DNA of 64,000 nucleotides from an uncultured Porphyromonadaceae bacterium (GCA_947174995.1 CAMWLC010000004.1:6428-70427), one strand, 5' to 3'. Counted from the first letter of the stretch, positions 3,109 through 47,443 are shown. The notes: generated by a model from the sequence alone, not told the origin. A program made the numbers and translations.

Positions 3109-3303
3109 TAAGTAAGTATTCAAATTTAAACGATATAATCAAAAGTAAGTGCTCACTTGATCTTTTATACAATCTGCGGCTTCTTTTTTGCCGCTTTCAG
3201 CTTGTCGCTCAGTCGCATAGCTCGCTATGCTCCCTCTCTCCGCACAGAAATCGTCTAAAAAACAAGCTCGCATATTGTATAAATTAAATTTGAACACTTA
3301 CTT
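3109..3303. mobile_element. TIR element, copy A (195 bp, inverted relative to copies B and C)
   Basis: Starts TAAGTAAGTATTCAAATTTAAA and ends TTAAATTTGAACACTTACTTA. It is nearly identical to the reverse complement of 33570-33766, while the flanking DNA is unrelated. Confidence 0.85.
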
Positions 3304-3462
3304 ATGGAATTAGATTTGTATACTCCCTTAGACAGTGAATTGGGACGTGAGTTTAGGTGATAAATCTCAAGAAATGTTAACGGAGTGGGGAATATATACG
3401 GGAAATCGAGGAAAATTTTAAAAAAACAGCTTGAAAAATTTGGATGTGATGAAAATAATGCT

Positions 3463-3509: not shown

Positions 3510-3580
3510 GGTTCCATGTCCGAGTGGTTAGGTACCGGTCTGCAAAACCGTTTACACCAGTTCGAGTCTGGTTGGAACCT
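3510..3580 (+). tRNA. tRNA-Cys (anticodon GCA)
   Basis: Folded by hand. It has a 7-bp acceptor stem (GGTTCCA/TGGAACC), a perfect 5-bp T stem (ACCAG/CTGGT) with a TTCGAGT loop, and the anticodon loop CTGCAAA. The discriminator is U, the CysRS identity element. The D stem is irregular and the top anticodon-stem pair is mismatched. Confidence 0.8.
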
Positions 3581-3587
3581 CTTGAGC

Positions 3588-3679: not shown

Positions 3680-4717
3680 TCACCGATATCGGGCGTAAAT
3701 GTCCGCTCCTTTCTGTTTGGCTATCCTGATGTGTTCGGGATTGTGTGGGTCAACACCATATTTCGACAACGGGGGCACCACCACCGGGGTGCCGGGGCGT
3801 ATGCGATCGGGATGTCCGAGAATAGCGGAGTTCTCTTCATATATATAGGGCCAGAGATTGAAGTTGCCGTAATGATCTTTGGCCATGGTGGTGAGATAGC
3901 GGGTGCGGGTGATGGTGTCTATCACCGCTTCAGTAGCTGCGGAGGCCATATCTCCCGAGGAATCAGACGGGCGCGTCGGAACGGCCTCTTCGGAAATACC
4001 GGGTTCCTGGTTGGATATGGTATCGGCACCGTCGCTTGCGGGCCATTGCTCTGCAATTACCGTATCGGATAAACCGTCCGCGGAGAAATCGGGAATCAAC
4101 CGGTCGCGGTATATGTACAGCATCGCCCCCCCGGCTATTATAGCCGCTGTCACGAAACCGGCAGCGAATCCAAGGCCAAACCTCCATCTTCTGCGTGAAC
4201 CGTGATGGTGACGGGAGCGATGATGATGAGTTGTCTCCGGTTCTTCATGAACAGTTTCTTCCTGCAGTGGTTCTTCATGAACAGTTTCTTCCTGCAGTGG
4301 TTCTTCCTGCACTGTTTCTTCGGGAGCGATATTTTCATTCTCCGTTTCGACCGGTTCCGGTGAGGGTGACTCCTGGAGTCGGTCATCAGGGAGGTCGGAG
4401 GGTATCTCAACCGTATCAAAGGCACCGAACGGAGCGTTGACGGCCCGGGAGAGATCCCTGGACGGTGTGAACGAAACCTTGTAGTGGCCGGCTATCTCGA
4501 TATTCTCGCCGGAGGTGACATCCACACTGCGACGCGGCTGTACGGGGATGGTGCGGAAAGATCCGAGACCCTTTATCCTCACTGTTTCCGAGACTTCGAG
4601 CGCAGCGGATGCCTCCTGACATAATTCCCTCACGAAATCCTCGCATACCTTTTTGCTCAGGCCGGTCTGCTTGCTCATCAAGGAGGATATGCCGGGAAGT
4701 GTTAGCTTGTTGTTCAT
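3680..4717 (-). CDS. HU-like N-terminal domain / acidic repeat / TM / LysM-like C-terminal protein
   Basis: 345 aa. The N-terminus (VRIKGLGSFRT..., HYKVSFTPS) resembles an HU/IHF fold. It is followed by EEPLQEETVH repeats, His/Arg-rich and TM segments, and a C-terminus (HYGNFNLWPYIYEEN...IRPGTPVVVP) that is LysM-like. Confidence 0.55.
   Translation of the reverse strand: MNNKLTLPGISSLMSKQTGLSKKVCEDFVRELCQEASAALEVSETVRIKGLGSFRTIPVQPRRSVDVTSGENIEIAGHYKVSFTPSRDLSRAVNAPFGAFDTVEIPSDLPDDRLQESPSPEPVETENENIAPEETVQEEPLQEETVHEEPLQEETVHEEPETTHHHRSRHHHGSRRRWRFGLGFAAGFVTAAIIAGGAMLYIYRDRLIPDFSADGLSDTVIAEQWPASDGADTISNQEPGISEEAVPTRPSDSSGDMASAATEAVIDTITRTRYLTTMAKDHYGNFNLWPYIYEENSAILGHPDRIRPGTPVVVPPLSKYGVDPHNPEHIRIAKQKGADIYARYR
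4241..4310. repeat. 30-bp in-frame tandem repeat (about 2.3 units) inside the HU-like/LysM gene
   Basis: TTCTTCATGAACAGTTTCTTCCTGCAGTGG occurs at 4241-4270 and 4271-4300, followed by a partial third unit. Confidence 0.9.
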
Positions 4718-33519: not shown

Positions 33520-33569
33520 CCGGGCCCCGCGCTGTCCTTTCCTATTTGATGGAGTTTAAGTCCTTTTCT

Positions 33570-33766
33570 TAAGTAAGTGTTCAAATTTAATTTATACAAT
33601 AGGCGAGCCTGTTTTTTTAGACGATTTCTGTGCGGAGAGAGGGAGCATAGCGAGCTATGCGACTGAGCGACAAGCTGAAAGCGGCAAAAAAGAAGCCGCA
33701 GATTGTATAAAAGATCAAGTGAGCACTTACTTTTGATTATATCGTTTAAATTTGAACACTTACTTA
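33570..33766. mobile_element. TIR element, copy B (197 bp)
   Basis: TAAGTAAGTGTTCAAATTTAA ... TTTAAATTTGAACACTTACTTA. The last A of the element is the A of the ATG of the following small ORF. Confidence 0.85.
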
Positions 33767-33927
33767 TGGATACCAATCTTATTTTACAATATTCCGCCGT
33801 GGGAGGCTCATTTCTTCTCGCCGGTGTCCTTATGGTAATGAGGAGATGCCGCCGGCCCCGCAAAAGGGGCGGAGGCTGCTGCGGGTGCGCTCTGAAGGAA
33901 TCCTGCGCTTCGCGTAAGAGGGAGTGA
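33766..33927 (+). CDS. FeoB-associated Cys-rich membrane protein-like small protein (53 aa)
   Basis: MDTNLILQYSAVGGSFLLAGVLMVMRRCRRPRKRGGGCCGCALKESC is one TM helix followed by a basic stretch and a GCCGC cluster, as in the FeoB-associated Cys-rich family. No feoB gene is present in the window. Confidence 0.55.
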   Translation: MDTNLILQYSAVGGSFLLAGVLMVMRRCRRPRKRGGGCCGCALKESCASRKRE

Positions 33928-33952
33928 GGGGGAGGAGTAAGTGTTGAGGGTT

Positions 33953-33998
33953 AAGTGATATGGGTTAGAGGTTTGTAAACCTCTAACCCATATCACTT
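33953..33998 (+). terminator. Long perfect hairpin after the small Cys-rich ORF
   Basis: AAGTGATATGGGTTAGAGGTTT-GT-AAACCTCTAACCCATATCACTT. The 3' arm abuts or overlaps the start of element copy C. Confidence 0.6.
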
Positions 33999-34193
33999 AT
34001 GTAAGTGTTCAAATTTAATTTATACAATATGCGAGTTTATTTTTTAGCTGATTTCAGTGCGGAGGAAAGGAGCATAGCGAGCTATGCGACTGAGCGACAA
34101 GCTGAAAGCGGCAAAAAAGAAGCCGCAGATTGTATAAAAGATCAAGTGAGCATTTACTTTTGATTATATCGTTTAAATTTGAACACTTACTTA
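33998..34193. mobile_element. TIR element, copy C (196 bp, same orientation as B)
   Basis: TATGTAAGTGTTCAAATTTAA ... TTTAAATTTGAACACTTACTTA. Relative to B, the interior carries several substitutions and a 1-nt indel. Confidence 0.85.
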
Positions 34194-34214
34194 ATATTGC
34201 TTTTGGAAGTTGAA

Positions 34215-35291
34215 TTATCGGATGACTACCTTGGTGGCTTTACAGTCGGCGACACGGATGAAGATACCGGCGGAGGGGTTGTTGACTTTCACACCCTGGA
34301 GGGAGTAGTAAGCCACGGGAGTCTCGGCGGCACCTACTGACGAGATGCCGGTGGAGTTGCTCTGCGCGAGATATGTGAGGATGTTTCCGGTGAGCTTCTC
34401 GAGATTGGAGTGGAAAGCATTGTTCTCTGTCCGGGGAGCCCATTCGCAGGCGGCGAGACCGTTGGCCACTATTCTGCCTTTGATCTCGGTGGTAGGGTTG
34501 AAGTCTACCAGACCGGCCACACAGTAGTCCTGCACGTGGCCCCAGGTGCCGATGACGGTGCAGTCAAACTGGCTCTCGAACTTCTCGAGGGTGTTCTTTC
34601 CCTCGGTGGTGTAGGAGTATGCGTTGAGGTCCCACATGCAGTTGTGGTCTTCACGATGGATGGCGGTGCCATCGGCAGTGCCCTCCATGGGGAAGCTCTC
34701 GTGGGGGTATCCCGTCTTTTCAGGAGCGATAGTCTCCAGACCTGCGTATGCGGGATGGTTGCGGCGGTCATATACCTGCGTCAGGTCGGGTTCGGCGGCA
34801 TTGAACTGCATGGAGCCGAAAAGTGCGTTGACTGTCCAGATGTCAGTGCCCCGGCCTCCGTCGCCGTCACCGAAAATGCCGGGAGCATAGTTCTCGGGAA
34901 GGCGGCCGAGAGCCGATACGAGCTGGGTGGCGTGTTTGGAGAGATAGAGGGAGCCGCCATCCTTGATATAGTTGGTGAGGGCCTCCTTTACGGCCGCGCC
35001 GGCCATTTCCTCGGGAAGACGGTCGGCTCCGTGACCGATGCCGATACGGTCGATATGGATCCAGAGCGCGTCCAGATCGGCGGCATTGATTTTCTCAATG
35101 GAGGAAAGGGTGATGAGCGCGCCCTCGGGAAACGCGCTTGTGAACCATGCTGCCGCGGCGGCCTCCTGCGCGTTGGCGGCGGACATATCGTCATGGCCTA
35201 CGAGCATACCCACCTTTTCGGCGGAAGCGTTCATCGGGAGAGAAGCCATCATAGCGGTGGCGGCAAGTGTGAGGGAAGTAAAGATTTTCAT
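34215..35291 (-). CDS. DUF4960-like secreted protein with T9SS CTD
   Basis: 358 aa with a signal peptide. The blocks DALWIHIDRIG, GGSLYLSKHATQ, REDHNCMW, TWGH and ANGLAA are shared with two modules of the GH32-like protein. The CTD is YYSLQGVKVNNPSAGIFIRVADCKATKVVIR. Confidence 0.6.
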   Translation of the reverse strand: MKIFTSLTLAATAMMASLPMNASAEKVGMLVGHDDMSAANAQEAAAAAWFTSAFPEGALITLSSIEKINAADLDALWIHIDRIGIGHGADRLPEEMAGAAVKEALTNYIKDGGSLYLSKHATQLVSALGRLPENYAPGIFGDGDGGRGTDIWTVNALFGSMQFNAAEPDLTQVYDRRNHPAYAGLETIAPEKTGYPHESFPMEGTADGTAIHREDHNCMWDLNAYSYTTEGKNTLEKFESQFDCTVIGTWGHVQDYCVAGLVDFNPTTEIKGRIVANGLAACEWAPRTENNAFHSNLEKLTGNILTYLAQSNSTGISSVGAAETPVAYYSLQGVKVNNPSAGIFIRVADCKATKVVIR

Positions 35292-35476
35292 GTCAGTGAA
35301 GTTAAAAAATTTGAAAAGTGTTGCGGAAAAGATTCCGGCGGCAAAATTAGAGTCGGATTATCGCAACGCCTTTCATTTCACTGACATATACTTGACAAAT
35401 CATTATTTTGAAAGGAAATGTCAGAATATAGCAAATACATGCCCCCAACTCATGAAATTTCAGAGCCTCCGGGGCC

Positions 35477-38254
35477 TCAGTCTTTCCGGATTGAATTGCG
35501 CAGTTCCGAGGGTGAGGTGCCATAGCAGTCGCGGAAGCACTTGGAGAGATATGCCGGGGAGGAGAAGCCCGATTCGTAGGCGATTTCGCTGATGCTGCGG
35601 TCAGTGGTGAGGAGCAGTTCGCGGGCCATCTTGAGCCGGAGATTGCGGAGTATCTCCGAAGCCGTGAGTCCCGTGAGGGCCTTCAGTTTCCTTGACATCT
35701 GCGCCGGACCGAGACCGAGGCGCGAGGCGATCTCCTCCAGGCTCGCGGATGAATCCGATATCCTTGCCTTTGCCTCCTTGAGAAAAGCTCTGTAAAACTC
35801 GCTCTCCAGGCTTCCGGCATCGTTGATGTCTATATCCTTTCCGGCGATGCGGTCACCGGAGGGTTGTCTCACCGACTCTTCGTCATATAACTCCCGGATA
35901 CGACGCCTGTTTTCGAGCAGATTCCGACATCGTGCCGTGAGCAGCTCGTGGCTGAAGGGCTTGGTGATATATCCGTCGGCACCGGAATCGTAACTCTCCA
36001 CGCGTTGTTCCTCAAGCTGGCAGGCTGTCAGCATAAGCACGGGAATGTGGGAGGTGGAGACCTCCTTTTTCAGGGCCGCGCAACACTCCAGACCATCCAT
36101 GCGGGGCATCATCAGGTCGCATATTATAAGGTCGGGCACATATCTTGTGGCCAACCCGAGAGCTTTGCGTCCATCAGAGGCCTTTATCACATTATATTCA
36201 TTGCCGAGAATATTGCCCACAAGACTGAGAATGTCGGGATTATCGTCAATTGCGAGCACAATGGGCTTGTCGGCGTCGAAAGTGGCGCCACCGCTTTCGG
36301 GGGGTGTAAAAATCACATCCACATCATCATTGTCCGGTTTCACCTCCGGAGTCTGTTCCTCATCCGAAACATGAATCACGGGGATCGTGACCGTAAACCG
36401 CGAGCCCTTGCCGGGAGTACTTTCCACGGAAATTCCGCCGCCGTGCATCTCTGCGAAGGCCCGCGCGAGGGCGAGTCCGATGCCCGAACCCTTGGGATTC
36501 ACGCGGTCCACCTGATAGAACCGCTCGAAAATCTTCTCCAGTTCGCCGGCCGCTATGCCGCTGCCGGTATCCTCTATGGAGAAAATGAAATTTTCCGGAG
36601 TCTGCCTGCACTCCAGCGTGATACATCCATGGCTCGGAGTGAACTTGAAGGCATTTGACATCAGATTGAAGAATATTCTTTCGATTTTCTCCACATCTAC
36701 AGCCATCCTGAAGTCCGAGGGTGTGCCGAAATCAGCTGAAAAACCTATATCACGTTTTCCCGCAACATTCAGGAATGAATCGGCCCACTCGCGGAAGAGA
36801 GACTGCATGTTTACCTCGGTGAGATGTAACTCGGATCTGCCGTTCTCATATTTCCTGAAATCCAGAATCTGGTCTATCATACGGCGCAGGATTCTGACAT
36901 TCCTGACGGCTATCTTCATCAGCCCGCGGTCGGTCTGGCTCAGGTTGCGGCTTTCGGCCAGACGCTCCACAGGTTCCGCAATCAGCGTGAGAGGAGTGCG
37001 CAGGTCGTGTGACACGTTGGTGAAAAACACGAGCTTCGACTTCGTGGCCTCGTCAAGAGCCTTGTAGAGGGCATCCTGCTTGTCGCGTTCCTCCGAGAGT
37101 TGCGCGTTTTTGGCGGTCAGAATGTTCTGATACTTGGTGCGTTGGCGAATGACTCTGACAGCCATGAAAATCGCTGCTCCGAGGAGCAGGGCTATTGCCA
37201 CGATGGAGTAGAGGAAGTAAGACTGTGCCCTGTGGCGCGACCAGATGTCGTCATACTTGGACTGGAGCAGGCGTATCTTGTTGGTCTCATCGTCAAGCAG
37301 ACGGTATTGCCTCAGCATTATATCGGCATTGTTGGAATCCACCGGGGGGAGGGCAGGACTGATCTGCACCTTGTCAAACGGACGATTCTGAAGGATGTCA
37401 AGGGCCGTTTTCACGAGACGATGGCCGTCTGTAGGATATATGAATGTTGCGTCTATAACGGAATCTGCCACTGCCTTGATGCCCAGGGCCGGAGCGGCAT
37501 CCGTGCCGAGCACCATCACATCCTCGCGTCCTGCTTTTTTCAGAGCCTTGGCCGCCCCGATGGCCATTAGGTCGTTATGAGCATATATGAGGCGGATATC
37601 CGGGTGTTTGCGTATAAGCGAATCGGCCACTCTCCCGGCGGGCACTTCCTTCCATCGTGCCGACACGGATGCCACATTGTGAAGTGCGGGAAAATCGGCA
37701 AGACGCGACACGAAGCCCTTGTGACGCAGAGCGGCCGGCGTAGAGCCCTCAAGACCTGTGATTTCAGCTATTGTCCCTCCTCCGTGAAGATGAGAGGCTG
37801 CATACTCGGCAGCCGTGCGTCCGATACCCTCGTTGTCAAACTCTATGAAAGCCGTGAAATCATCTCCCGTCACTCCTCTGTCGAATACGATCACCGGGAT
37901 ACCCTTGCGGTAGGCCTTGCTGAGCACCGGAGTCAGGGCCTCGGCCTGGTTTGGCGCGGCTATTATGACGTCCACGCCCTCTTCTATGAAATGTTCGATG
38001 TCGGCTATCTGACGGGCGTTGTCGTCATCGGCTGTGCGTATCTCCACATCAACCTCTGGATGAAACAGCACCTCGCGGTAGATCTCATCGTTCATCTTGG
38101 TGCGCCAGATGTCGTCGCTGCACTGCGACACCCCGATGCGCCAGGTGGCCTCTTTCTTTTCGCTGCATCCCCCGGATAATATAATGACCGACATCAGGAG
38201 CAAACCGGAAAAGAGATATGTGAGAGTCCCGAAGCCGAATGATTGCCGTTGCAT
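35477..38254 (-). CDS. Hybrid two-component system sensor/regulator (periplasmic sugar-binding domain, HisKA/HATPase, receiver, AraC HTH)
   Basis: 925 aa. The N-terminal type-I periplasmic-binding fold (WRIGVSQCSDDIWR..., IPVIVFDRG) is followed by a TM segment. Next come the H-box (FFTNVSHDLRTPLT), the G-boxes and the receiver (ILAIDDNPD...DLMMPRMDG). The C-terminus is an AraC HTH. The architecture matches the B. thetaiotaomicron fructose sensor BT1754. Confidence 0.8.
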   Translation of the reverse strand: MQRQSFGFGTLTYLFSGLLLMSVIILSGGCSEKKEATWRIGVSQCSDDIWRTKMNDEIYREVLFHPEVDVEIRTADDDNARQIADIEHFIEEGVDVIIAAPNQAEALTPVLSKAYRKGIPVIVFDRGVTGDDFTAFIEFDNEGIGRTAAEYAASHLHGGGTIAEITGLEGSTPAALRHKGFVSRLADFPALHNVASVSARWKEVPAGRVADSLIRKHPDIRLIYAHNDLMAIGAAKALKKAGREDVMVLGTDAAPALGIKAVADSVIDATFIYPTDGHRLVKTALDILQNRPFDKVQISPALPPVDSNNADIMLRQYRLLDDETNKIRLLQSKYDDIWSRHRAQSYFLYSIVAIALLLGAAIFMAVRVIRQRTKYQNILTAKNAQLSEERDKQDALYKALDEATKSKLVFFTNVSHDLRTPLTLIAEPVERLAESRNLSQTDRGLMKIAVRNVRILRRMIDQILDFRKYENGRSELHLTEVNMQSLFREWADSFLNVAGKRDIGFSADFGTPSDFRMAVDVEKIERIFFNLMSNAFKFTPSHGCITLECRQTPENFIFSIEDTGSGIAAGELEKIFERFYQVDRVNPKGSGIGLALARAFAEMHGGGISVESTPGKGSRFTVTIPVIHVSDEEQTPEVKPDNDDVDVIFTPPESGGATFDADKPIVLAIDDNPDILSLVGNILGNEYNVIKASDGRKALGLATRYVPDLIICDLMMPRMDGLECCAALKKEVSTSHIPVLMLTACQLEEQRVESYDSGADGYITKPFSHELLTARCRNLLENRRRIRELYDEESVRQPSGDRIAGKDIDINDAGSLESEFYRAFLKEAKARISDSSASLEEIASRLGLGPAQMSRKLKALTGLTASEILRNLRLKMARELLLTTDRSISEIAYESGFSSPAYLSKCFRDCYGTSPSELRNSIRKD

Positions 38255-38434
38255 TGGTGTAATTATTATGTGGTCATTAATTTTTCAGAGCTACTTAAGA
38301 ACTACTTATTCATTTCGGTGCAAAAATAAACCATACTCTTTTGAAATACAAATAATTGCTTTCAATATGCCGACAACTCCACAAATGTGATACAAAATGC
38401 ACGATTTTTGATACTCCCCTCCAGGCCGCCTCTC

Positions 38435-38442
38435 TACTTTTG
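38435..38442 (+). promoter_or_regulatory. -7 box (TACTTTTG) upstream of the GH32-like gene
   Basis: Matches TAnnTTTG, 92 nt upstream of the ATG at 38534. Its position argues against the 38387 start of the track ORF. Confidence 0.4.
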
Positions 38443-38533
38443 CATCGCCGTCCTCCCCGGCATAGTCATTCAACGGGCTTTCCCTCCGGAATGGAGACGA
38501 CGGACAGAAACGAAAACCAACAACCAAAAAATA

Positions 38534-41500
38534 ATGCTTTTTTCTATGACCGACAACATGACAAAACTCTGTATGGCCGCCCTGCTTACGGCAGCCGGAC
38601 ATACGGCGGCGGTCCATGCGGATCGTGTGGCATGGTTTCCCATGGATGTGCAGTCAGGGCTTAACGAGAGAGTCTCGGGAGGCCACTGGGACATCCAGGG
38701 CAACTTCGCGCCTATGCAGATTTCGCTTGACGCATCCCGTCCGGCCTGGCGCACGGACGGATATACATCGAAAGCCGTGGCTCATCTGGGCAATCTGGTG
38801 GATGGCTCCGAGATGAGCGCCACCGTCTGGGTGGCTCCCGACACATATCCCATCATCGTGCATGAGCATCCTACGGAGGAGAAGAGCGAAATTGTCAGCT
38901 GCCTGACCGACAACTCCGGATTCGGATTCTTCCTCGGACGCACCGGACATTATTCCTTCGTGACATACGTCGGAGGCGTGCGTGTGGAGGTGGAGTCAGA
39001 CCGGCTGCTTCCCCTTTGGGAGTGGACCTGCCTCTCCGGCGTGGTGTCAGACGGCAAGGTGCGCCTCTATGCAGGAAAGACCCTCGTCGGCGAGGCCGAC
39101 GCTCCCGGCAATGTGCGGGTAGCCGACAGCGAACTCTTCATCGCACGCCGCAATGACGGCGGCGACTGGCCCGGCGTGAATGTGCGTACATTCAACGGCG
39201 GCATCGGCGAAATCGCAGTTTACAGCAATGCTATCGGCGTCGACGAGATGGAGGACACCATGCCCGCGCTCCTCAATCTTCCCGCCGACCATTATAAAGG
39301 CAACCGCATGCGTGCCGGTTTTCACGGTCAGCCCGAGATGAACTGGACCAACGAGACCCACGGACTCATATACAGCGGTGGGCTCTATCACCTCTTCTTC
39401 CAGAAGACCGGCTCAGCGCCCGTGATGACACATCAACACTGGGGCCACATCGTGTCGGAAGACCTCATGCACTGGCGCGACACCCGACCCGCTCTCGCTC
39501 CCGGAGAGAGCTATGACATCAAGGGATGCTGGAGCGGCTGCGTGGCCATCGATCGGGCCCTCAACGGAGGCGCTCCCACCATTTTCTACACCGGTGTGGA
39601 CTACGCGCAGCCCTATCTCGCCATGGCCACCGCCACGGACGCTACACTCGCCAATTGGGAGAAATCGGCATCCAATCCCATCGTCACTCTCAAAGATGGT
39701 GCCGAGTCTCACTTCCGCGACTGCTTCTATTTCAAGGGAGACGACGGATGCTGCTATATGATCACCGGCACTTCCAAAGATGGACGCGCCGCCACTATGC
39801 TCCACCGTCTCGATGGCGACTCATGGACCGACCTCGGTTACAGCTGGGTATCGGAGGACGCAGGTGTAGATGGGAACTTTGCGGAAATGCCCAACCTCGT
39901 CAAACTCGGCGACAAGTGGATGATGACCACCACAGCACTCGGTTCCGATCAGGGTGTCGTATGCCGCTATCGCCTGGGTTCGCTTGACGGCGGACGTTTC
40001 GTGCCGGACGAAGCATACCGTCTGCCCCGCAAGGTGGACATCCTCGCGGAGCGCGGATTCGGACTCATGTCTCCCTCTCCCTCTGTGGATGCTTCGGGCA
40101 ATGTGATCGCCATGGGTATTGTGGCCGACAAGCTCCCCACCCATTATAACCTTTCCAACGGATTCGCGCATCTTTACAGCCTCCCGCGCGTGTGGACGCT
40201 CAGCGACGGCGAACTCGCCCAGGCTCCGCATCCCATGACGGAGACTCTGCGTGCCGAAGATGCCTTCGGCCAGTATCATGCAGCCGACGTAGCTCTCAAC
40301 GGCACTCTCAGCCTGGAGAACGTGCGTGGACGCGCCGCCGAAATCGACGCCCGCTTCACGGTAGGCACTTCCACCTTCGGCATCAACTTCTTCAAGAACG
40401 CCAAGGGTCGCCAGGCCACGCTTTCCTATAATCCCGCCACCCATGAACTCGCCGTTGACTTCGGCGGCATCAAGCGCTGGGGCCAGGATGAGGGAAATCC
40501 CAACCGTTTCTCCGCCATCATTCCCGCTGACCGCGCGCCGCGCGAGGGTGAGGAATTCCGCCTCCATCTTTTCCTTGACCGCTCCATCCTCGACATCTTT
40601 GCCGGAGACCGCTATGCAGCTTCCGTGAGAGTGTTCTGCGAGGATGATGAAGCCGACAACATCGAGCTTTTCGCCGACGGCCTCACCACTGTGGCGAGTG
40701 TTGATGCATATCTCATGGATGGTGGTGACCACACCGCAGAGCCTGTCGCTCCCAAGGAGTTCCAACTCCCGGCCAACAACGGCAAGGTGGCCTTCCTCAA
40801 GAGCAGCCTCGGCGTGAGTCAGCAGGAACAGGCCGCGCTTGATTTCTTCCGGCGCACCAATCCCAAAGGCACGGTTTTTGAAACTTCCGACCTCTCCGGC
40901 CTGAACACCAAGAAGATCGACTGCCTCTGGATCCACATCGACCGCATGGGTCTTGAACATGGTTGGGAGCATCTCCCTGCGGAGTTCGTGGCTCCCGAGG
41001 TTGTGGAGGCCGTGCAGAACTATCTCGAAGCCGGAGGCAACATCTACCTCACCTCACACGCCACGCAGTATGCCGTGGCAATCGGCCGACTCAACTCCCA
41101 CTACGCACCCAATGAGATAGCCACCGGCGAAGGTGGCCACGGCACCGACTCCTGGACCGTCAACCCCCGCATCATGCAGAGGTATGACCACTCCTCCCAC
41201 GCTATCTACAATGACCTGGAAGAGTGTGACATCTTTGAATGGAACGAAGGCACCTTCGGCCTTCTCTACGGCGGCGGCGCCAACATACATCGCGAAGACC
41301 ACAACTGCATGTGGCGTCTACGAGACTTCCACTTCAGCTCCGAGGGAGACAACCGCATAGAGCAGTTCGAGAACGCTACCCACTCCCGGGTGATCGGTAC
41401 ATGGGGCCAGGACAACTCCGACGAATTTGCCGGCATCATCGAGTTCTATCCCATGCAGAACGCCGACCATGAATACGGAGGCACCATTATAGCCAACGGT

Positions 41501-42664
41501 CTCGCCGCCTGCCAGTGGTATGTGGAGGGTGAGAACGCCTACGAGCAGAACCTCCAGCTCCTCACCGCCAACACATTCACATATCTCGCCAATCCCAACA
41601 AGGAGGAGCAGCCCGAAAATCCCGGCGGCGGTGAATACGTTGAGCCGGAAACCCCGGAAATCCCCGAATCCACAGGCAATGTGGCAATGTACATCGGTGC
41701 ATCCATGGCCGAGGTGATGAACAACGAGCAGGAATGGGGCGCTGTACAGCTCTTCCAGTCCCTCTATCCCGGAGCCACTGTCATCTATGGTCTCCCCGAG
41801 CTCATCAATGAATCGGAAACTCCCTACGATTGCCTCTGGGTACACGCTGAGCGCGACCACATCGGAGCCGGTTGGCAGAACGTGACCGGACTCAATGACG
41901 AGGCCACAATCAAAGCCCTGAGCGAGTATCTGAGCAACGGCGGAAACCTTTACCTCTCCAAGCATGCAGCCCAGCTCGTTGTGGCCCTCGGCCGCACGGA
42001 TGCAGCTCCGACCGAGTTCGGCAACACCGATCCGAACATCATCCTGGAGCGTCCCGACCATGATGAGTGGCAGGCCAACATCTACGCCAACGGCGAGGAC
42101 TGGTCAGAACACACCATCTTCTATCAGATTCCCTACATAGATGTGGAGCACGGCAAGGTGATCGACCTTCTCGGCAAGGGTGCAAGACACTATGACCGCA
42201 ACTGCATGTGGAAGCTCAACGACTTCGGCGGTCATGACGAGTTCTGTCGCAACCACAACGCCCGCGTGCTCGCCACATGGGGCCACAACGGCGGCCAGGC
42301 TTGGGGGGGCATCATAGAGTTCATGCCCCGCACAGGCACCATGAACCGCGCCATATCCCAGGATCGTGTTGAGGCTCGCAAGGGCACGGTAGTGGCCAAC
42401 GGCCTCGCAGCTTACCAAATAGCTCCTCTCCAGGGGTCCGTGAATCCCTATCAGGACAATATCAACAAGCTCACCTCCAATATCCTCGCCTATCTCTCGC
42501 CCGTGGCTGAGGAGGATCTGTCAACCGGTGTCGCCGGTGTTTCGACAGCCGAGGCTCCCGTGCGCTGGTTCACTCTCCAGGGAGTCGAGGTGGTTCGCCC
42601 GAGCGCAGCCGGCATCTACATCCGCGTCTGCGGCAAGGAGAGCCACAAGGTAATAGTGAAGTAA
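38534..42664 (+). CDS. Multidomain secreted GH32-like fructanase: LamG-like domain + GH32-like catalytic domain + 2 x DUF4960-like modules + T9SS CTD
   Basis: The start is taken at the first Met before the signal peptide (MTKLCMAALLTAAGHTAAVHA); 38546 or 38558 are also possible. GH32 blocks are LYHLFFQ, HWGHIVSEDLMHWRD, GCWSGCVAI, FRDC and AEMPNL. Two DUF4960-like modules lie at about 40785-41590 and 41680-42510. The CTD is RWFTLQGVEVVRPSAAGIYIRVCGKESHKVIVK. Confidence 0.75.
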   Translation: MLFSMTDNMTKLCMAALLTAAGHTAAVHADRVAWFPMDVQSGLNERVSGGHWDIQGNFAPMQISLDASRPAWRTDGYTSKAVAHLGNLVDGSEMSATVWVAPDTYPIIVHEHPTEEKSEIVSCLTDNSGFGFFLGRTGHYSFVTYVGGVRVEVESDRLLPLWEWTCLSGVVSDGKVRLYAGKTLVGEADAPGNVRVADSELFIARRNDGGDWPGVNVRTFNGGIGEIAVYSNAIGVDEMEDTMPALLNLPADHYKGNRMRAGFHGQPEMNWTNETHGLIYSGGLYHLFFQKTGSAPVMTHQHWGHIVSEDLMHWRDTRPALAPGESYDIKGCWSGCVAIDRALNGGAPTIFYTGVDYAQPYLAMATATDATLANWEKSASNPIVTLKDGAESHFRDCFYFKGDDGCCYMITGTSKDGRAATMLHRLDGDSWTDLGYSWVSEDAGVDGNFAEMPNLVKLGDKWMMTTTALGSDQGVVCRYRLGSLDGGRFVPDEAYRLPRKVDILAERGFGLMSPSPSVDASGNVIAMGIVADKLPTHYNLSNGFAHLYSLPRVWTLSDGELAQAPHPMTETLRAEDAFGQYHAADVALNGTLSLENVRGRAAEIDARFTVGTSTFGINFFKNAKGRQATLSYNPATHELAVDFGGIKRWGQDEGNPNRFSAIIPADRAPREGEEFRLHLFLDRSILDIFAGDRYAASVRVFCEDDEADNIELFADGLTTVASVDAYLMDGGDHTAEPVAPKEFQLPANNGKVAFLKSSLGVSQQEQAALDFFRRTNPKGTVFETSDLSGLNTKKIDCLWIHIDRMGLEHGWEHLPAEFVAPEVVEAVQNYLEAGGNIYLTSHATQYAVAIGRLNSHYAPNEIATGEGGHGTDSWTVNPRIMQRYDHSSHAIYNDLEECDIFEWNEGTFGLLYGGGANIHREDHNCMWRLRDFHFSSEGDNRIEQFENATHSRVIGTWGQDNSDEFAGIIEFYPMQNADHEYGGTIIANGLAACQWYVEGENAYEQNLQLLTANTFTYLANPNKEEQPENPGGGEYVEPETPEIPESTGNVAMYIGASMAEVMNNEQEWGAVQLFQSLYPGATVIYGLPELINESETPYDCLWVHAERDHIGAGWQNVTGLNDEATIKALSEYLSNGGNLYLSKHAAQLVVALGRTDAAPTEFGNTDPNIILERPDHDEWQANIYANGEDWSEHTIFYQIPYIDVEHGKVIDLLGKGARHYDRNCMWKLNDFGGHDEFCRNHNARVLATWGHNGGQAWGGIIEFMPRTGTMNRAISQDRVEARKGTVVANGLAAYQIAPLQGSVNPYQDNINKLTSNILAYLSPVAEEDLSTGVAGVSTAEAPVRWFTLQGVEVVRPSAAGIYIRVCGKESHKVIVK

Positions 42665-42717
42665 CGTCTGAAGTAGAGGAGGCATCCCTGCCTCCTTACT
42701 ACAATCTGTCGTACAGT

Positions 42718-42748
42718 TGAGGAGGCATCTTTGCCTCCTCACTTTTTT
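42718..42748 (+). terminator. Rho-independent terminator after the GH32-like gene
   Basis: TGAGGAGGC-ATCTTT-GCCTCCTCA followed by CTTTTTT. It is preceded by a second hairpin of the same family at 42677-42696. Confidence 0.8.
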
Positions 42749-42823
42749 ATAGACTGCACGCGATGTTTCCGTATTTGATTCTTATAACATCACCATGATA
42801 TTGCATTTCTCCGAACAAATAGT

Positions 42824-42831
42824 TAATTTTG
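42824..42831 (+). promoter_or_regulatory. -7 box (TAATTTTG) upstream of the AAA-ATPase/PD-(D/E)XK gene
   Basis: Matches TAnnTTTG, 21 nt upstream of the ATG at 42852. Confidence 0.4.
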
Positions 42832-42851
42832 TGGATTGACAACGACAGATT

Positions 42852-44432
42852 ATGAAGCAAGCTGAAGAAAAGGAGATAAAATATCCGGTCGGAATACAGA
42901 ACTTCTCGAAACTCCGTGAGGGAGGATATATGTATGTGGACAAGACCCGGATCATCTATGAACTGATCCGTAACTCAGGATATTATTTCCTGTCTCGCCC
43001 GCGACGCTTCGGAAAAAGCCTCATGCTTTCGACCCTGGAGGCCTACTATCAGGGAAGACGGGACCTCTTCAAGGGTCTGGCGCTTGAATCACTCGCGGAG
43101 AATTGGGAGCCGTGTCCCGTTCTACATCTCGACCTCAATAACGGAAATTACCGGGATGTCGAGGATCTCGAGAATGTCCTTGACTATCATTTGCGTGGGT
43201 GGGAAAAGGAATACGACATTCCGGCATCGGATGCGGAGCAGTGGTCGCTACCCCTTAGGTTCGCCACGGTAATACGCCGGGCATTCGAGATGTCGGGCAG
43301 CCGGGTGGCCATCCTCGTGGACGAGTATGACAAACCCATGCTTAACGCTGTGGGCGACGAGACCTTGGCCGAGAACTTCCGGTCGATACTCAAGGCTTTC
43401 TATTCCAACCTCAAGACGATGGACCGCTATATCCGGATCGGAGTCATGACCGGAGTGGCGAGATTCAGCAAGATATCCATCTTCTCGGATCTCAATAACC
43501 TGCGTGACATCTCATTCGAGGATGTTTTCTCCTCCATTTGCGGAATAACCTCGGATGAACTCACCTCATATTTTGCCGACGGTATTCAAGCATTGGCCAT
43601 GAAATACGGGAAATCCGCTGAAGAGATTCACAAGGATCTGGCTGTCAATTACGACGGATACCATTTCTCCATCAACAGCCCCGGCATATACAATCCCTTC
43701 AGCCTTATGAATGTTTTCGCATCTTCGGAAATAAGGAGTTATTGGTTTGAGTCGGGCACTCCGAGTTTCCTATTGAAACTCGTAGGACGGTCCGGGCGCA
43801 AGTTGGAAGACATATCCAATGTCGAGATAGGGGAGTCTACGCTCGTCTCTGCCGGTATCACGACCACAGATCCCATACCGGCCCTGTACCAATCAGGCTA
43901 TCTTACGATCAAAGGGTATGATCCCGAATTCAAGATTATCACTCTCGGCTATCCTAATCGGGAAGTGAAAGAGGGTTTTCTTAAATTCCTGTTGCCCCAT
44001 TACGTCAACATGGAAGATTCAGACAACGCGATGTATATACACAGGTTCGTTATGGATGTCAGAAACGGGGATCCGCGGGCTTTCATGCACAGACTTGCCG
44101 GACTGGTCGCGTGTGTGCCATATTCTGAAAAAGGTTCTGCGGAAGCACATTTTCAAAACGTATGCTATCTCATATTTACCCTTATGGGATATTTCACGAG
44201 AATGGAGCAACGTACCTCCGATGGTAGGATCGATTTGACGGTAGAAACAGACAAGTATGTCTATATCTTCGAGTTCAAGACGAATTCCACTGCAAGTGCA
44301 GCCATTGATCAAATATTTCGGAGGCAGTACTGGCTACCGTATGTTCATTCCGGGAAGAAGATCTTCCTCATCGGAGCCAATTTCAATACTAAGACACGCA
44401 GGATCTCCGAGTATGAAATCAAGACTCCGTAA
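42852..44432 (+). CDS. AAA-ATPase-like N-terminal domain + PD-(D/E)XK nuclease-like C-terminal domain protein (the multi-copy Bacteroidales 'ATP-binding protein' family)
   Basis: 526 aa. The N-terminus YPVGIQNFSKLREGGYMYVDKT...YYFLSRPRRFGKSL (Walker A-like) and ILVDEYD are typical of the AAA-ATPase_like family. The C-terminus (GRIDLTVETDKYVYIFEFK) is typical of the PDDEXK_9-type domain. Family names are from memory. Confidence 0.7.
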   Translation: MKQAEEKEIKYPVGIQNFSKLREGGYMYVDKTRIIYELIRNSGYYFLSRPRRFGKSLMLSTLEAYYQGRRDLFKGLALESLAENWEPCPVLHLDLNNGNYRDVEDLENVLDYHLRGWEKEYDIPASDAEQWSLPLRFATVIRRAFEMSGSRVAILVDEYDKPMLNAVGDETLAENFRSILKAFYSNLKTMDRYIRIGVMTGVARFSKISIFSDLNNLRDISFEDVFSSICGITSDELTSYFADGIQALAMKYGKSAEEIHKDLAVNYDGYHFSINSPGIYNPFSLMNVFASSEIRSYWFESGTPSFLLKLVGRSGRKLEDISNVEIGESTLVSAGITTTDPIPALYQSGYLTIKGYDPEFKIITLGYPNREVKEGFLKFLLPHYVNMEDSDNAMYIHRFVMDVRNGDPRAFMHRLAGLVACVPYSEKGSAEAHFQNVCYLIFTLMGYFTRMEQRTSDGRIDLTVETDKYVYIFEFKTNSTASAAIDQIFRRQYWLPYVHSGKKIFLIGANFNTKTRRISEYEIKTP

Positions 44433-44461
44433 CCCCGGGAGCGCACAGAGTCTCGTTATTG

Positions 44462-44564
44462 GCGCGGAGTTCACTCTCCAGGGTGTCGAGGTAGCTCGTC
44501 CGGGCGCACCGGCATCTACATACGCGTCTGCGGCAAGGAGAGTCACAAGGTAATAGTGAAGTAA
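44462..44564 (+). pseudogene. Remnant of a T9SS C-terminal domain coding end (duplicate of 42562-42664, frameshifted)
   Basis: About 90% identical by eye to the last ~100 nt of the GH32-like gene, including the TAA stop and the following GTCTGAAGT(A/T)GAGGAGG. A 1-nt deletion (CGCAGCCGGC versus CGCACCGGC) breaks the frame, and there is no upstream ORF. Confidence 0.7.
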
Positions 44565-44824
44565 CGTCTGAAGTTGAGGAGGTATCTCGAATTTTTTTGG
44601 TCAAAATAGGATATTATTGGAATAAATGGGGGTAATTGGAACTCTTGTTTACTCGGAATTGATTTCATAATTTTGATGTGGAAATGATAACACCATTATC
44701 AAATGCGAATCACATCTTAAATTATATCAATATGAAACATTTCTGCTTCTGTGCCTAATATGCTGATTATGGATATGCCACCATTTCCGGCAGCGGCAGG
44801 AACTTCAGTCTTTTAATTTCTCCG

Positions 44825-45436
44825 ATGGTCTACGCTGGAGGAAATTACGAGATTTACATTCCCGAGGCTACCTTCCGTAATGCTGCCGAAGAGGCCGATG
44901 CAACGAATTTCAGCAGCGAACTCTATTATCACTATCATAAGAGGCAGCCCAAGGTGATAACCGTGACCGAAAAGATTCCGGCACAAAACGCAGAATTGTA
45001 CGGCTTCGACACCGGAGAGGGTATTACTATCGTGACTGATCCGAGAGGTATGGCAGCCAGGATGGAACTTGAATTAACCTCGTATCCTGTGGAAGACTAT
45101 CAATATGAAGGTGGAATTATACTACTCCGTACCGAAACAACCACCAGGAATGAAGAGGGCGACATCTGCTGGATAAATGATGGTCCCGAAATCGAATTCT
45201 CCAAGGACAGACGATACGAGGTGCGTTTTATTCTCTTTGATGCTGAAGGCACTGCTCTCCGCCAGGGTGCCATTGAATATAATTATCCCGCTGATTCCGT
45301 TGGTATAGATACAATAACCGGATCGGAAAGCGAGAGAAAGGTGTACAATATTCAAGGTATGCGTCTTGGTAACGATATCGATGCTCTTCCCGCAGGACTC
45401 TACATCATTGACGGCAAGAAAGTGGTGAAGAAGTAA
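44825..45436 (+). CDS. T9SS CTD-containing protein, probably a 5'-truncated or decayed gene
   Basis: 203-aa ORF ending in the CTD KVYNIQGMRLGNDIDALPAGLYIIDGKKVVKK, but with no signal peptide. Short broken ORFs (MKHFCFCA*, MLIMDMPPFPAAAGTSVF*) lie just upstream. Confidence 0.45.
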   Translation: MVYAGGNYEIYIPEATFRNAAEEADATNFSSELYYHYHKRQPKVITVTEKIPAQNAELYGFDTGEGITIVTDPRGMAARMELELTSYPVEDYQYEGGIILLRTETTTRNEEGDICWINDGPEIEFSKDRRYEVRFILFDAEGTALRQGAIEYNYPADSVGIDTITGSESERKVYNIQGMRLGNDIDALPAGLYIIDGKKVVKK

Positions 45437-45496
45437 TGTATAGTTGACAGTGTTGAGTGTCCGGTTGACAATGGACGCGATAACACGATAGATGAC

Positions 45497-45528
45497 AAAG
45501 TGAGGAGGCAGGGATGCCTCCTCACTTT
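45497..45528. terminator. Bidirectional hairpin between convergent genes
   Basis: AAAGTGAGGAGGCA-GGGA-TGCCTCCTCACTTT, the same GAGGAGGC/GCCTCCTC stem family as at 42718-42748. Confidence 0.75.
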
Positions 45529-45622
45529 GTTAACGGATATCCCACGCGACATTCATGTTTTTTTTCTGTAAATCAATAATAGAGGCATAACCCGAATATA
45601 CAGTGCATGTGAGGGATTGGGG

Positions 45623-47443
45623 TCAGGAGATCTTTTTGCCGGAGTTGTCCGCGAAGACGGAGAGTGTGATCTGCGAGATCATCTCCTTGAGGCGGGCGAT
45701 GAACTCATCGGCGCTGTATTCCCCGCGCTCTATGGCACGGAGGCGCCCCTCCCAGATGCCGGTGAGCTTGGCGCTCTTGAGCAGTTCCTCGTTGATTATG
45801 CCGATGAGGTCAATGCCGGCTTTGGTAGCGCGGAGCGTCTTTCCCTGACGACCGCATTTTTCGATATATCCCCGCTTGTAAAGCACCTCGATGATGGCGG
45901 AACGTGTGGAGGGGCGCCCCAGGCCGTTGGCCTTCAGGGCCTCGCGCAGATCCTCGTCCTCAACCGTTGAGCCTGCTGTCTCCATCGCCTTGAGCAGAGA
46001 GCCCTCGTCAAAATATTTCGGAGGCTTGGAGGTCTTCTTCACCAGATGCGGTTCGTGAGGGCCTGTTTCTCCGCGTTTGAAAGGGGGGAGTTCAGTCTGT
46101 TCGGACTCCGATTCCTTTTTGTTTTCACGCTCGGGATCTTTGTCGCGGGCATATACGGCTTTCCATCCCTGCGCCATAATCACGCGCCCCGAGGCCTTGA
46201 ACTCCACATCAGCAGGCGTATCTTTGACCGTTCCCTTCACAATGGTCTGGTCATACTCCATATCGGGATAGAACACCGATATGAAACGCCGTGCTATCAG
46301 GTCGAACACCTCGTATTCCGCCCGGCTCAATCCCTGCGGCAGAGGTATACCCGTGGGTATGATGGCATGATGATCGGTGACTTTGGAATTGTCAAACACC
46401 TTTTTCGACTTCCTGAGCTTGCTGCCGCGAAGAGGCTGGAGCAACTCGGAATATTGCGTCAGGGAGTTGAGGATGGGGCCGCACTTGGGGTATATGTCGT
46501 CCGTGAGGTAAGTGGTGTCCACACGCGGGTATGTGGCGAGCTTTTTCTCATACAGGCTCTGGATGGTGCGCAGTGTCTCCTCGGCCCCCATGTTGAGCCG
46601 CTTGTTCGCCTCCACCTGGAGAGCCGTCAGGTCGAAGAGGCGGGGTGGAAACTCGCGCCCTTTCTTGCGGCTCACCTCGGTGACGGTAAACGGCGAGGCC
46701 TTGAGGCGCTCCGGCACGGCTGCTCCCGCCTCCTGAGTCTCGAAAGGATCAAGCTGTGTGGAGAAGGTGACACCTCTATATATGGTGCGCAGCTCGAAAG
46801 TGTCCTTCGGCACGAAATTCTCTATTTCATGCTGACGGTTGACCACCATGGCGAGGGTAGGGGTTTGCACGCGCCCGATGGAGAGGAGATTGCGATCCGT
46901 GCCATATTTGAGGGAGTAGAGACGCGTTGCGTTGATGCCCAATATCCAGTCGCCTATCGCGCGGCAGAGTCCGGCGGTGTAGAGCGACTCAAGTTCCTTG
47001 TGTGGGCGCAGATGCTTGAATCCCTCGCGGATAGCCTCGTCGGTGAGGGAGCTTATCCAGAGGCGTTCCACCGGTTTGTCGCATCCCGCCTTCTGCATCA
47101 CCCAACGCTGGATTACCTCACCCTCCTGTCCGGCATCACCGCAGTTGATGATGCGTTCACACTGCCGTATCAGCCCCTCTATGGTCTCGAACTGCCGCTT
47201 TATACTCGCCTGGGGGATCACCTTGATTCCGAACCGGGGGGGAATCATAGGGAGCGACGAGAGTGACCACCGCTGCCAGGCGGGGGTATAGTCTGCCGGT
47301 TCCTTGAGGGTGCAGAGATGTCCGAAGGTCCATGTCACGCAGTATTCGGGACCCTCGAAATAGCCGTCGCGGCGAATGGTCGCGCCGAGCACGTCGGCGA
47401 TGGTCTTGCCGACGCTCGGCTTCTCGGTGATGCAGAGTATCAA
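45623..47443 (-). CDS. topB: DNA topoisomerase III (type IA, short form)
   Basis: 606 aa with a Toprim N-terminus (ILCITEKPSVGKTIA, GHLCTL, NCGDAGQEGE). The active-site region is RVQTPTLAMV, followed by ...TYLTDD... Confidence 0.8.
   Translation of the reverse strand: MILCITEKPSVGKTIADVLGATIRRDGYFEGPEYCVTWTFGHLCTLKEPADYTPAWQRWSLSSLPMIPPRFGIKVIPQASIKRQFETIEGLIRQCERIINCGDAGQEGEVIQRWVMQKAGCDKPVERLWISSLTDEAIREGFKHLRPHKELESLYTAGLCRAIGDWILGINATRLYSLKYGTDRNLLSIGRVQTPTLAMVVNRQHEIENFVPKDTFELRTIYRGVTFSTQLDPFETQEAGAAVPERLKASPFTVTEVSRKKGREFPPRLFDLTALQVEANKRLNMGAEETLRTIQSLYEKKLATYPRVDTTYLTDDIYPKCGPILNSLTQYSELLQPLRGSKLRKSKKVFDNSKVTDHHAIIPTGIPLPQGLSRAEYEVFDLIARRFISVFYPDMEYDQTIVKGTVKDTPADVEFKASGRVIMAQGWKAVYARDKDPERENKKESESEQTELPPFKRGETGPHEPHLVKKTSKPPKYFDEGSLLKAMETAGSTVEDEDLREALKANGLGRPSTRSAIIEVLYKRGYIEKCGRQGKTLRATKAGIDLIGIINEELLKSAKLTGIWEGRLRAIERGEYSADEFIARLKEMISQITLSVFADNSGKKIS

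Follow-up and report, generated by a model that had tools for sequence, protein, structure and literature searches.

Orphaned 3′ gene regions in type VI secretion system (T6SS) and Rhs loci have been proposed to arise from recombination that is homologous on one side and illegitimate on the other (PMC5361080), a process that experiments have demonstrated during conjugation (PMC3240628). A comparable arrangement is found in a 64,000-nucleotide stretch of DNA from an uncultured Porphyromonadaceae bacterium (GCA_947174995.1, CAMWLC010000004.1:6428-70427; hereafter the window), where a gene for an AAA-ATPase_like/PDDEXK_9 protein (the ATPase gene) is bracketed by two direct copies, DR1 and DR2, of the 3′ end of the neighboring GH32/DUF4960 fructan hydrolase gene (GH32). 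Its orphan is a 5′-truncated 3′ end of an intact upstream gene, with foreign DNA lying between the two, and the locus is a further instance of this already known type of footprint. As to its origin, we tentatively prefer the explanation that DR2 was orphaned by illegitimate recombination, by which we mean recombination that is neither site-specific nor of the transposon type, at a remodeled edge of a horizontally acquired fructan island.

The likeness to T6SS effector–immunity arrays and to the "C-terminal displacement" of Rhs genes (PMC5361080, PMC3240628) extends from the order of parts, namely, an intact gene, foreign DNA, and a 5′-truncated copy of the gene's own 3′ end, to the abrupt junctions, the absence of a recombinase, and the presence of further remnants downstream. 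In contrast to those systems, the window holds one displaced 119-nt tail instead of a string of alternative toxic tips and immunity genes, GH32 is no polymorphic toxin, and no donor allele or transfer route has been seen.

Mobile DNA offers further parallels. Like the insertion sequences IS1634 and IS1549 (PMC2266710), the unit between the repeats measures ~1.8-1.9 kb, carries one open reading frame (ORF) of ~530 amino acids (aa), and is accompanied by a long direct repeat of host sequence; the variable repeats of those elements (8-514 bp) find a counterpart in the brackets of loci of the same ATPase family, which range from 28 to 125 bp. Unlike them, the unit has no DDE transposase, no terminal inverted repeats, and no shared non-coding ends, and only a few percent of family loci have a bracket. 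The repeat likewise recalls the attL and attR sites of integrase-borne islands at 3′ gene ends, in that it covers the 3′ end of a gene, with the intact copy on the gene and an orphan at the far side. Such islands differ in carrying an integrase or excisionase, both absent from the 1.8-kb insert; moreover, the targets here vary by locus, and the repeat copies are 91% instead of near-100% identical and end in a hairpin.

The family to which the ATPase gene belongs, DUF1703, has been described as multi-copy, recombining, and horizontally transferred, with unknown function (PMC6387759, PMC1913061, PMC3424549). Its expansions in Cardinium cCpun (PMC6387759) share the domain architecture, the multiplicity, and the tandem arrays seen in the present family, as well as horizontal transfer, traces of recombination among paralogues, and the occurrence of some members on plasmids. 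That study reports neither flanking duplications nor a mobility mechanism, and function is unknown in both cases; our search of the literature likewise found no paper on flanking duplications or a mobility mechanism for the DUF1703 family.

The repeated gene end and the remnant beside it

The repeat was recovered by a repeat finder as two pairs, one of 78 nt at 95% identity (42609-42686 and 44509-44586, spacing 1900) and the other of 40 nt at 88% (42568-42607 and 44469-44508, spacing 1901), which MAFFT and blastn merge into one repeat of 119-126 nt and ~90.5% identity (Table 1). A blastn comparison of 630 nt of upstream flank with 660 nt of downstream flank returned the repeat at E=6e-45, whereas mismatched flanks of different loci, which served as a control, reached a maximum of 27 bits. 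A single 1-nt deletion lies in DR2 at the position after GGGCGCA in the alignment. The repeat, its ~90% identity, and its lone deletion had all been described in a preceding sequence-only reading, and the three methods agree with that description. Because the repeat includes 25 non-coding bases, DR1 and DR2 share recent common descent, and the repeat is a true duplication as had been claimed.

Table 1. Features of the locus in window coordinates, with base composition (GC, G+C fraction; GC3, G+C fraction at third codon positions)
Feature	Coordinates	Strand	GC	GC3	Remarks
Lineage-specific island	33930-45580				~11.7 kb, approximate bounds; surface glycan-binding protein (SGBP)/DUF4960 (-), hybrid two-component regulator (-), GH32 (+), ATPase (+), gene remnants
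GH32/DUF4960 fructan hydrolase gene	38546-42664	+	0.59	0.72	Intact, 3′ end = DR1; Pfam Glyco_hydro_32N/C, DUF4960, Laminin_G_3
DR1	42568-42686	+			Last 32 codons of GH32, TAA, 11 nt, left arm and loop of hp1
hp1	42674-42702	+			Hairpin without T-run; first of two tandem units, 43-bp period
hp2	42718-42749	+			Hairpin followed by T-run
Promoter-like motif TAATTTTG	42824-42831	+			20 nt upstream of ATPase ATG; read from sequence
AAA-ATPase_like + PDDEXK_9 (DUF1703-type) gene	42852-44432	+	0.49	0.59	Intact; GC below neighbors
Spacer, ATPase stop to DR2	44433-44468	+			36 nt
DR2	44469-44586	+			Orphan copy of GH32 tail; 1-nt deletion causing frameshift; hairpin ends in loop
5′-truncated gene remnant	44636-45436	+			From gene of ~564-aa secreted protein, family residues ~307-564; in-frame stops, e.g., TAA 44756
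ORF203	44825-45436	+	0.47	0.48	Still-open 3′ part of remnant
hp3	45493-45532				Perfect 16-18-bp hairpin between remnant and convergent topoisomerase gene
Topoisomerase III gene	45623-47443	-	0.58	0.73	Pfam Toprim, Topoisom_bac; conserved right neighbor of island

Within DR1, the GH32 gene ends by encoding FTLQGVEVVRPSAAGIYIRVCGKESHKVIVK before its stop codon, and the repeat then runs into the first of two tandem hairpins. DR2 terminates at GAGGAGGTATC with the right arm of the hairpin missing, as had been noticed at the outset and as both sequence and fold energy confirm: hp1 folds at -18.3 kcal/mol (z=-3.5) and hp2 at -20.3 kcal/mol, and the corresponding stretch of DR2 reaches -4.9 kcal/mol, no better than shuffled sequence. 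The sequence after DR2 is a run of seven T residues followed by AT-rich DNA. At the left junction of DR2, a possible microhomology of the form GCGC..GG can be made out by eye at 44468/44469.

The hairpin, GAGGAGGCA-NNNN-TGCCTCCTC, occurs in three copies at this locus and nowhere else in the 64 kb, and with only these three local copies the idea of a dispersed element resembling repetitive extragenic palindromes was rejected for the window. hp2 is the only terminator-like site found between the repeats and is likely the working terminator of GH32. Its left half, AGTTGAGGAGGCATCT, resembles the end of DR2 better than hp1 does, and sequence comparison likewise places the hairpin part of DR2, AGTTGAGGAGGTATCT, closer to hp2 than to hp1. 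hp3, whose perfect stem is the longer one and whose fold energies are -28.5 and -31.8 kcal/mol, is 84% identical to hp2 as a direct repeat, and its 4-nt loop is the reverse complement of that of hp1.

Downstream of DR2 lies a second broken gene. In an exhaustive phmmer search, residues 2-201 of ORF203 aligned to the last 200 residues of proteins that are 550-1160 aa long. With the best of these matches as query (P0362, a 564-aa protein that has a signal peptide as well as CopC/Ig-like modules), tblastn aligned residues 307-557 to window positions 44636-45415 in the frame of ORF203 (E=6e-58), across in-frame stop codons that include the TAA at 44756. The remnant comprises the last ~260 codons of the gene for a ~564-aa protein, and it starts at most 50 nt after DR2. 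ORF203 itself has neither a Pfam nor an NCBIfam match, and the possibility that it represents a diverged GH32 C terminus was rejected (BLASTP E=0.32). Since its residues ~150-203 match the extreme C termini of many unrelated proteins, a shared sorting tail is plausible for the remnant. The GH32 tail had earlier been labeled as coding for a C-terminal domain of the type IX secretion system (T9SS), on the strength of resemblance by eye; no T9SS C-terminal-domain profile matches it, and neither the last 100 aa of GH32 nor the ORF203 tail gave a Por_Secre_tail-type match in Pfam (E<=10) or NCBIfam (E<=0.01).

DR2 and the remnant are thus two orphaned 3′ gene ends side by side, and DR2 has non-homologous junctions at both sides. 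Its abrupt edges, 36 nt past the ATPase stop on the left and in a hairpin loop on the right, together with the remnant make the locus a pile of broken 3′ ends. The remnant had been overlooked in the first reading, and it alters the interpretation of the locus.

The DNA between the repeats consists of the remainder of hp1, hp2, and a single ORF, so that the ATPase gene is indeed the sole gene in the interval, as had been stated. It matches Pfam PF09820 at its N terminus (E=1e-64, 218.3 bits against a cut-off of 26.1) and PF08011 at its C terminus (E=7e-20, 71.4 bits against 25.5). The Walker A residues GKS 54-56 and Walker B residues DE 157-158 are invariant among 17 homologues, the window protein included, as are the nuclease residues D461, E474, and K476 (D...ExK); with these residues kept, the gene reads as a working gene. 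The -7 promoter motif of Bacteroidetes is TAnnTTTG, and TAATTTTG, which matches it, is a candidate -7 element for the ATPase gene. Taken together, the promoter-like motif and the intact catalytic motifs let the gene be read as functional cargo, and nothing that we found shows it to have catalyzed the event.

By base composition, both the ATPase gene and ORF203 look foreign within the island, and they also differ from one another (Table 1). The lower GC and GC3 of the ATPase gene relative to GH32 bear out its earlier description as a later addition, and, because the ATPase gene and the remnant differ in GC3 from GH32 and the topoisomerase gene as well as from one another, separate acquisitions are suggested.

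Origin of the downstream copy

The manner in which DR1 and DR2 have diverged is informative with respect to their history. Across 30 comparable codons, there are five synonymous and two nonsynonymous differences (S=21.3 and N=68.7 sites; pS 0.23, pN 0.029, pN/pS 0.12), in addition to two changes in the 25 non-coding bases and the frameshift. Five or more synonymous changes out of seven would be expected with a probability of 0.010 under drift of both copies, 0.063 if constraint acted on DR1 while DR2 drifted from the outset, and 0.77 with both copies constrained. This pattern leans towards DR2 having spent most of its divergence time within a functional gene copy, either the allele of another strain or a paralogue. 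The sequence-only reading had itself allowed that its insertion model would fail if DR2 were the end of a decayed paralogous gene with upstream remnants; the mostly synonymous divergence fits such a descent, but no upstream remnant survives.

On the explanation that we prefer, the resident locus would initially have been organized as GH32, tail, terminator, and gene X. Earlier than the import or alongside it, a deletion with its endpoint in the hairpin loop would have removed the 5′ half of gene X. DNA of a related strain, carrying GH32 with its tail, hp1/hp2, and the ATPase gene, would then have recombined in by way of a first, homologous crossover within or upstream of GH32 and a second, illegitimate join, in which DNA 36 nt past the end of the ATPase gene was linked to a point in the resident tail 32 codons ahead of the tail's own stop. 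The resident tail would thereby have been displaced downstream as DR2, to acquire its frameshift later, and the repeat would constitute two diverged alleles of one gene end as opposed to a duplication made by the ATPase. These steps and their order are our inference, whereas the arrangement of the parts, the composition of the foreign genes, the lack of the island in relatives, the second remnant, and the substitution counts are observed.

A similar picture emerges at one of the family loci surveyed below, L090, a polysaccharide-biosynthesis locus in which a DegT/DnrJ/EryC1 aminotransferase gene has 54 nt near its 3′ end duplicated at 98% identity (2923-2976 and 4628-4681), with a repeat copy lying 31 nt past the stop of the family ATPase gene. 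The intact aminotransferase gene ends in VLNIIKS and the orphan in VLKFFKS, the two ends being of equal length, with similar residues and diverged sequence, as expected for two alleles. Displacement of a resident tail accounts for the diverged ends at L090 as well as for the abrupt junctions, the possible microhomology, and the ~9% mostly synonymous divergence in the window.

Several points weigh against this explanation. Neither a second allele, nor a donor, nor an empty site has been observed, and the species has been seen in one sample only. The scenario requires at least two events, the truncation of gene X and the displacement of the tail. The synonymous excess is drawn from seven substitutions only and, set against the model of one constrained and one decaying copy, is borderline (P=0.06), a value that becomes weaker still given transition bias, and the microhomology at the left junction is a judgment by eye. 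Furthermore, genes of the family are bracketed by repeats more often than other genes are, a finding compatible with some part played by the gene itself.

If DR2 is indeed a displaced resident tail, the locus provides a worked example of how accessory genes enter the polysaccharide-utilization regions of Bacteroidales without mobile-element machinery, imprecise recombination between diverged strains leaving orphaned gene ends as a record of the event. Such an outcome would be useful, albeit unsurprising.

Duplication, insertion, and the ATPase family at large

An origin by local rearrangement, without import, is possible, though we deem it unlikely. It could take the form of a 1.9-kb tandem duplication of the segment from GH32 tail through terminator to ATPase gene, followed by loss of most of the second unit, or that of a 119-nt templated filler, the nearby tail having been copied during repair of the break or deletion that also truncated gene X. 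Tandem arrays are frequent in the family (L016, L017, L050, L085, L122, L158, and L200/L201), and that of L017 (2927-6179) contains a 1612-bp family-gene unit in two copies that are 99.8% identical. A hairpin loop, where DR2 ends, is a plausible point of stalling or breakage, and the fact that DR2 abuts a truncated gene implies that a deletion did occur here. These observations have to be set against the absence, after DR2, of any trace of a second ATPase copy or its upstream region, against a synonymous bias that such a history fits poorly (P ~0.06), and against L090, where the orphan continues into a different but homologous gene end that plain tandem duplication does not predict.

An insertion footprint, of the kind that had originally been proposed, is in our estimation doubtful. 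It would mean that an ATPase unit made up of promoter, ORF, and 36 nt was inserted beside the GH32 terminator, that at least 119 bp of target was duplicated in the process, and that DR2 subsequently decayed. The duplication would stem either from the filling-in of a break with widely staggered ends, which the unit's own PD-(D/E)XK nuclease might have made, or, if a circular copy was involved, from Campbell-type recombination. That exactly one gene lies between the repeats is in its favor, as is the precedent of long direct repeats of variable length in IS1634 and IS1549.

Further support comes from a survey of 80 family loci from species-representative genomes (L015-L094) and 80 from metagenomes, the latter largely human-gut by contig name, in each of which every gene of 200 codons or more had its two flanks compared. 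Direct repeats of at least 34 bits bracket 7/126 single family genes as opposed to 3/297 other genes (Fisher P=0.009), and two of those three other genes adjoin a family gene. Three of the seven bracketed loci are clear duplications of host coding sequence, namely, the window, L090, and L020, where ~70 nt of an amidase fragment are repeated at 80% identity. Weaker cases are the repeats of promoter-like sequence at L049 and L036 and the dispersed intergenic repeats at L038, L040, and L078. Short flanking repeats scoring at least 12 are likewise in excess, at 12/139 loci against 4/217 other genes and 3/417 mismatched flank pairs, an excess to which AT-rich intergenic flanks of the same genome may contribute. 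At L017, a 29-bp direct repeat (GTGAC.G.A.ATTTGTAAATTTGAAAAAC), which overlaps the stop codon of the gene, stands before, between, and after the tandem copies.

The same survey limits what can be claimed. In the second, metagenomic sample, none of the 62 single loci has a bracket. The promoter-type repeats may be members of dispersed families of intergenic repeats, such as those involved at L040 and L038. Looking for decayed brackets with tblastx added no case to those known, and the six loci with repeats among the first 80 of the family have flanks that match no other locus. A gene-inclusive all-versus-all search yielded one orthologous pair, L027/L047. The family is more associated with local duplication than its neighbor genes are, its members also standing in tandem arrays more often, and its association with flanking repeats is weak but real; a long host bracket occurs occasionally and is no family signature. 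The expectation that other paralogues would show similarly duplicated host ends is therefore borne out in part: brackets recur at L090 and L020 and are commoner than around other genes, but they are rare in the family.

The locus itself is difficult to reconcile with a simple insertion, since the remainder of the terminator follows DR1 and a truncated gene follows DR2, so that host continuity across the insert fails; a complete terminator stands after DR1 and not after DR2, which runs into the other broken gene. The differences between DR1 and DR2 are mostly synonymous. The signs that would mark a mobile unit are also lacking. The insert encodes ATPase and PD-(D/E)XK domains and, by Pfam, no transposase, integrase, or recombinase domain, which also sets it apart from a site-specific integrative island. 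The repeat finder detected no inverted repeat at 42687 or 44468, and the flanks of the window ATPase gene match no other family locus, with no conserved non-coding ends. With non-homologous junctions on DR2, mostly synonymous divergence, and a bracket that is rare in the family, a target duplication or Campbell-type footprint of a mobile ATPase unit is not supported.

A bolder proposal, and in our view an improbable one, is that AAA-ATPase_like/PDDEXK_9 genes are selfish elements that consist of nothing but an ORF, whose own ATPase-nuclease would make widely staggered breaks, often at hairpins or gene ends, into which the gene is copied with a host duplication of variable length. DR1/DR2 would be an old, partly eroded example. 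This would explain the multiplicity of the family in Bacteroidales, its tandem arrays, and the excess of flanking direct repeats, and, should the family signal reflect something that the encoded nuclease does, a function as well as a mechanism of mobility would have been found for the family. Comparisons with known proteins returned little for the window protein: PADLOC gave no meaningful defense-system match, NCBIfam no match, and the PDB no match either by sequence or, at E<=0.001, by Foldseek with an AlphaFold model (predicted local distance difference test score, pLDDT, 66). Of 72,556 plasmid records, 51 carry members of the family, as do a few viral contigs.

An assembly artefact, in which GH32 would in truth be joined directly to the DNA downstream of DR2 and the ATPase gene would reside on a separate, possibly circular 1.9-kb element, is highly improbable: the assembly graph permits both paths at k=31, and Logan unitigs break exactly at the ~30-nt exact word common to DR1 and DR2, with the ATPase unitig spanning DR1 to DR2, but the longest exact match between the repeats is 31 nt and is spanned by ordinary reads, the linear order recurs in two contig-level assemblies, unitig depths are similar (29, 36, and 33), and the contigs of the sole run that holds the locus report no alternative joint. 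The window sequence from 42000 to 46000 (4,001 nt) matches the ENA and NCBI contigs at 100%, and the Logan unitigs are 100% identical to it over the parts that they cover; these sequences apparently come from one sample and effectively amount to one observation.

Other family loci show rearrangements of their own. In L200/L201 (3780-4000), an identical ATPase (P0130) and its tandem paralogue stand behind two unrelated upstream contexts, and their 99.9% homology starts exactly at the 23-bp inverted repeat of a ~200-bp element resembling a miniature inverted-repeat transposable element (MITE), just upstream of the ATG. As this may be either a real rearrangement or a chimeric metagenome assembly at the repeat, it was not used as evidence of mobility. 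Another family ATPase, P0197 (L202-L209), adjoins a strain-variable block that holds Fic/HTH genes in most samples; in the one sample of L207, AAA_15/AAA_21 and an MmeI-type restriction-modification gene take their place, a neighborhood that resembles a defense island.

The fructan island and its neighbors

The repeat sits at the right edge of the island, whose borders are a small Cys-rich ORF downstream of PNP_UDP_1 on the left and topoisomerase III on the right. By the names that homologues bear, the organism is an uncultured member of the Muribaculaceae. In the closest relatives found, whose topoisomerases are 82% and 73% identical to that of the window, PNP_UDP_1 and topoisomerase are convergent neighbors. 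The gap between them is ~270 bp in the closest relative (82%; L009/L010), where it holds a small Cys-rich ORF, and contains one or two further short ORFs in the 73% relatives (L011-L014). In the window, the two genes are 12 kb apart, so that the genes from SGBP to ORF203 constitute a lineage-specific island and, given its absence from the nearest relatives, a variable region.

Homologues of GH32 place the gene in other surroundings. The closest are only 45-50% identical; one (L212) has a homologous C-terminal tail followed by recA, and next to another (L213), which belongs to a canonical fructan locus, a second GH32 gene lies downstream. In contrast to this homologous locus, the island has no SusC or SusD gene, and in no relative examined does an ATPase gene follow GH32. 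With homologues at or below 50% identity, no orthologous junction exists, and a contig scan for an empty site by way of GH32 found nothing. Exact look-ups with the topoisomerase, ORF203, and ATPase sequences returned only the same sample.

Rfam and tRNA scans found nothing relevant in the island, and the sole tRNA gene of the window, that for tRNA-Cys, begins at 3510. The window has three copies, 93-98% identical (3109-3304 on the minus strand, 33563-33767 and 33996-34193 on the plus strand), of a ~200-bp MITE-like element whose terminal inverted repeats are AAGTAAGTGTTCAAATTTAA ... TTAAATTTGAACACTTACTT. Two of them flank the Cys-rich ORF (33767-33928) at the left edge of the island, and the third adjoins the tRNA-Cys gene (3510-3581).

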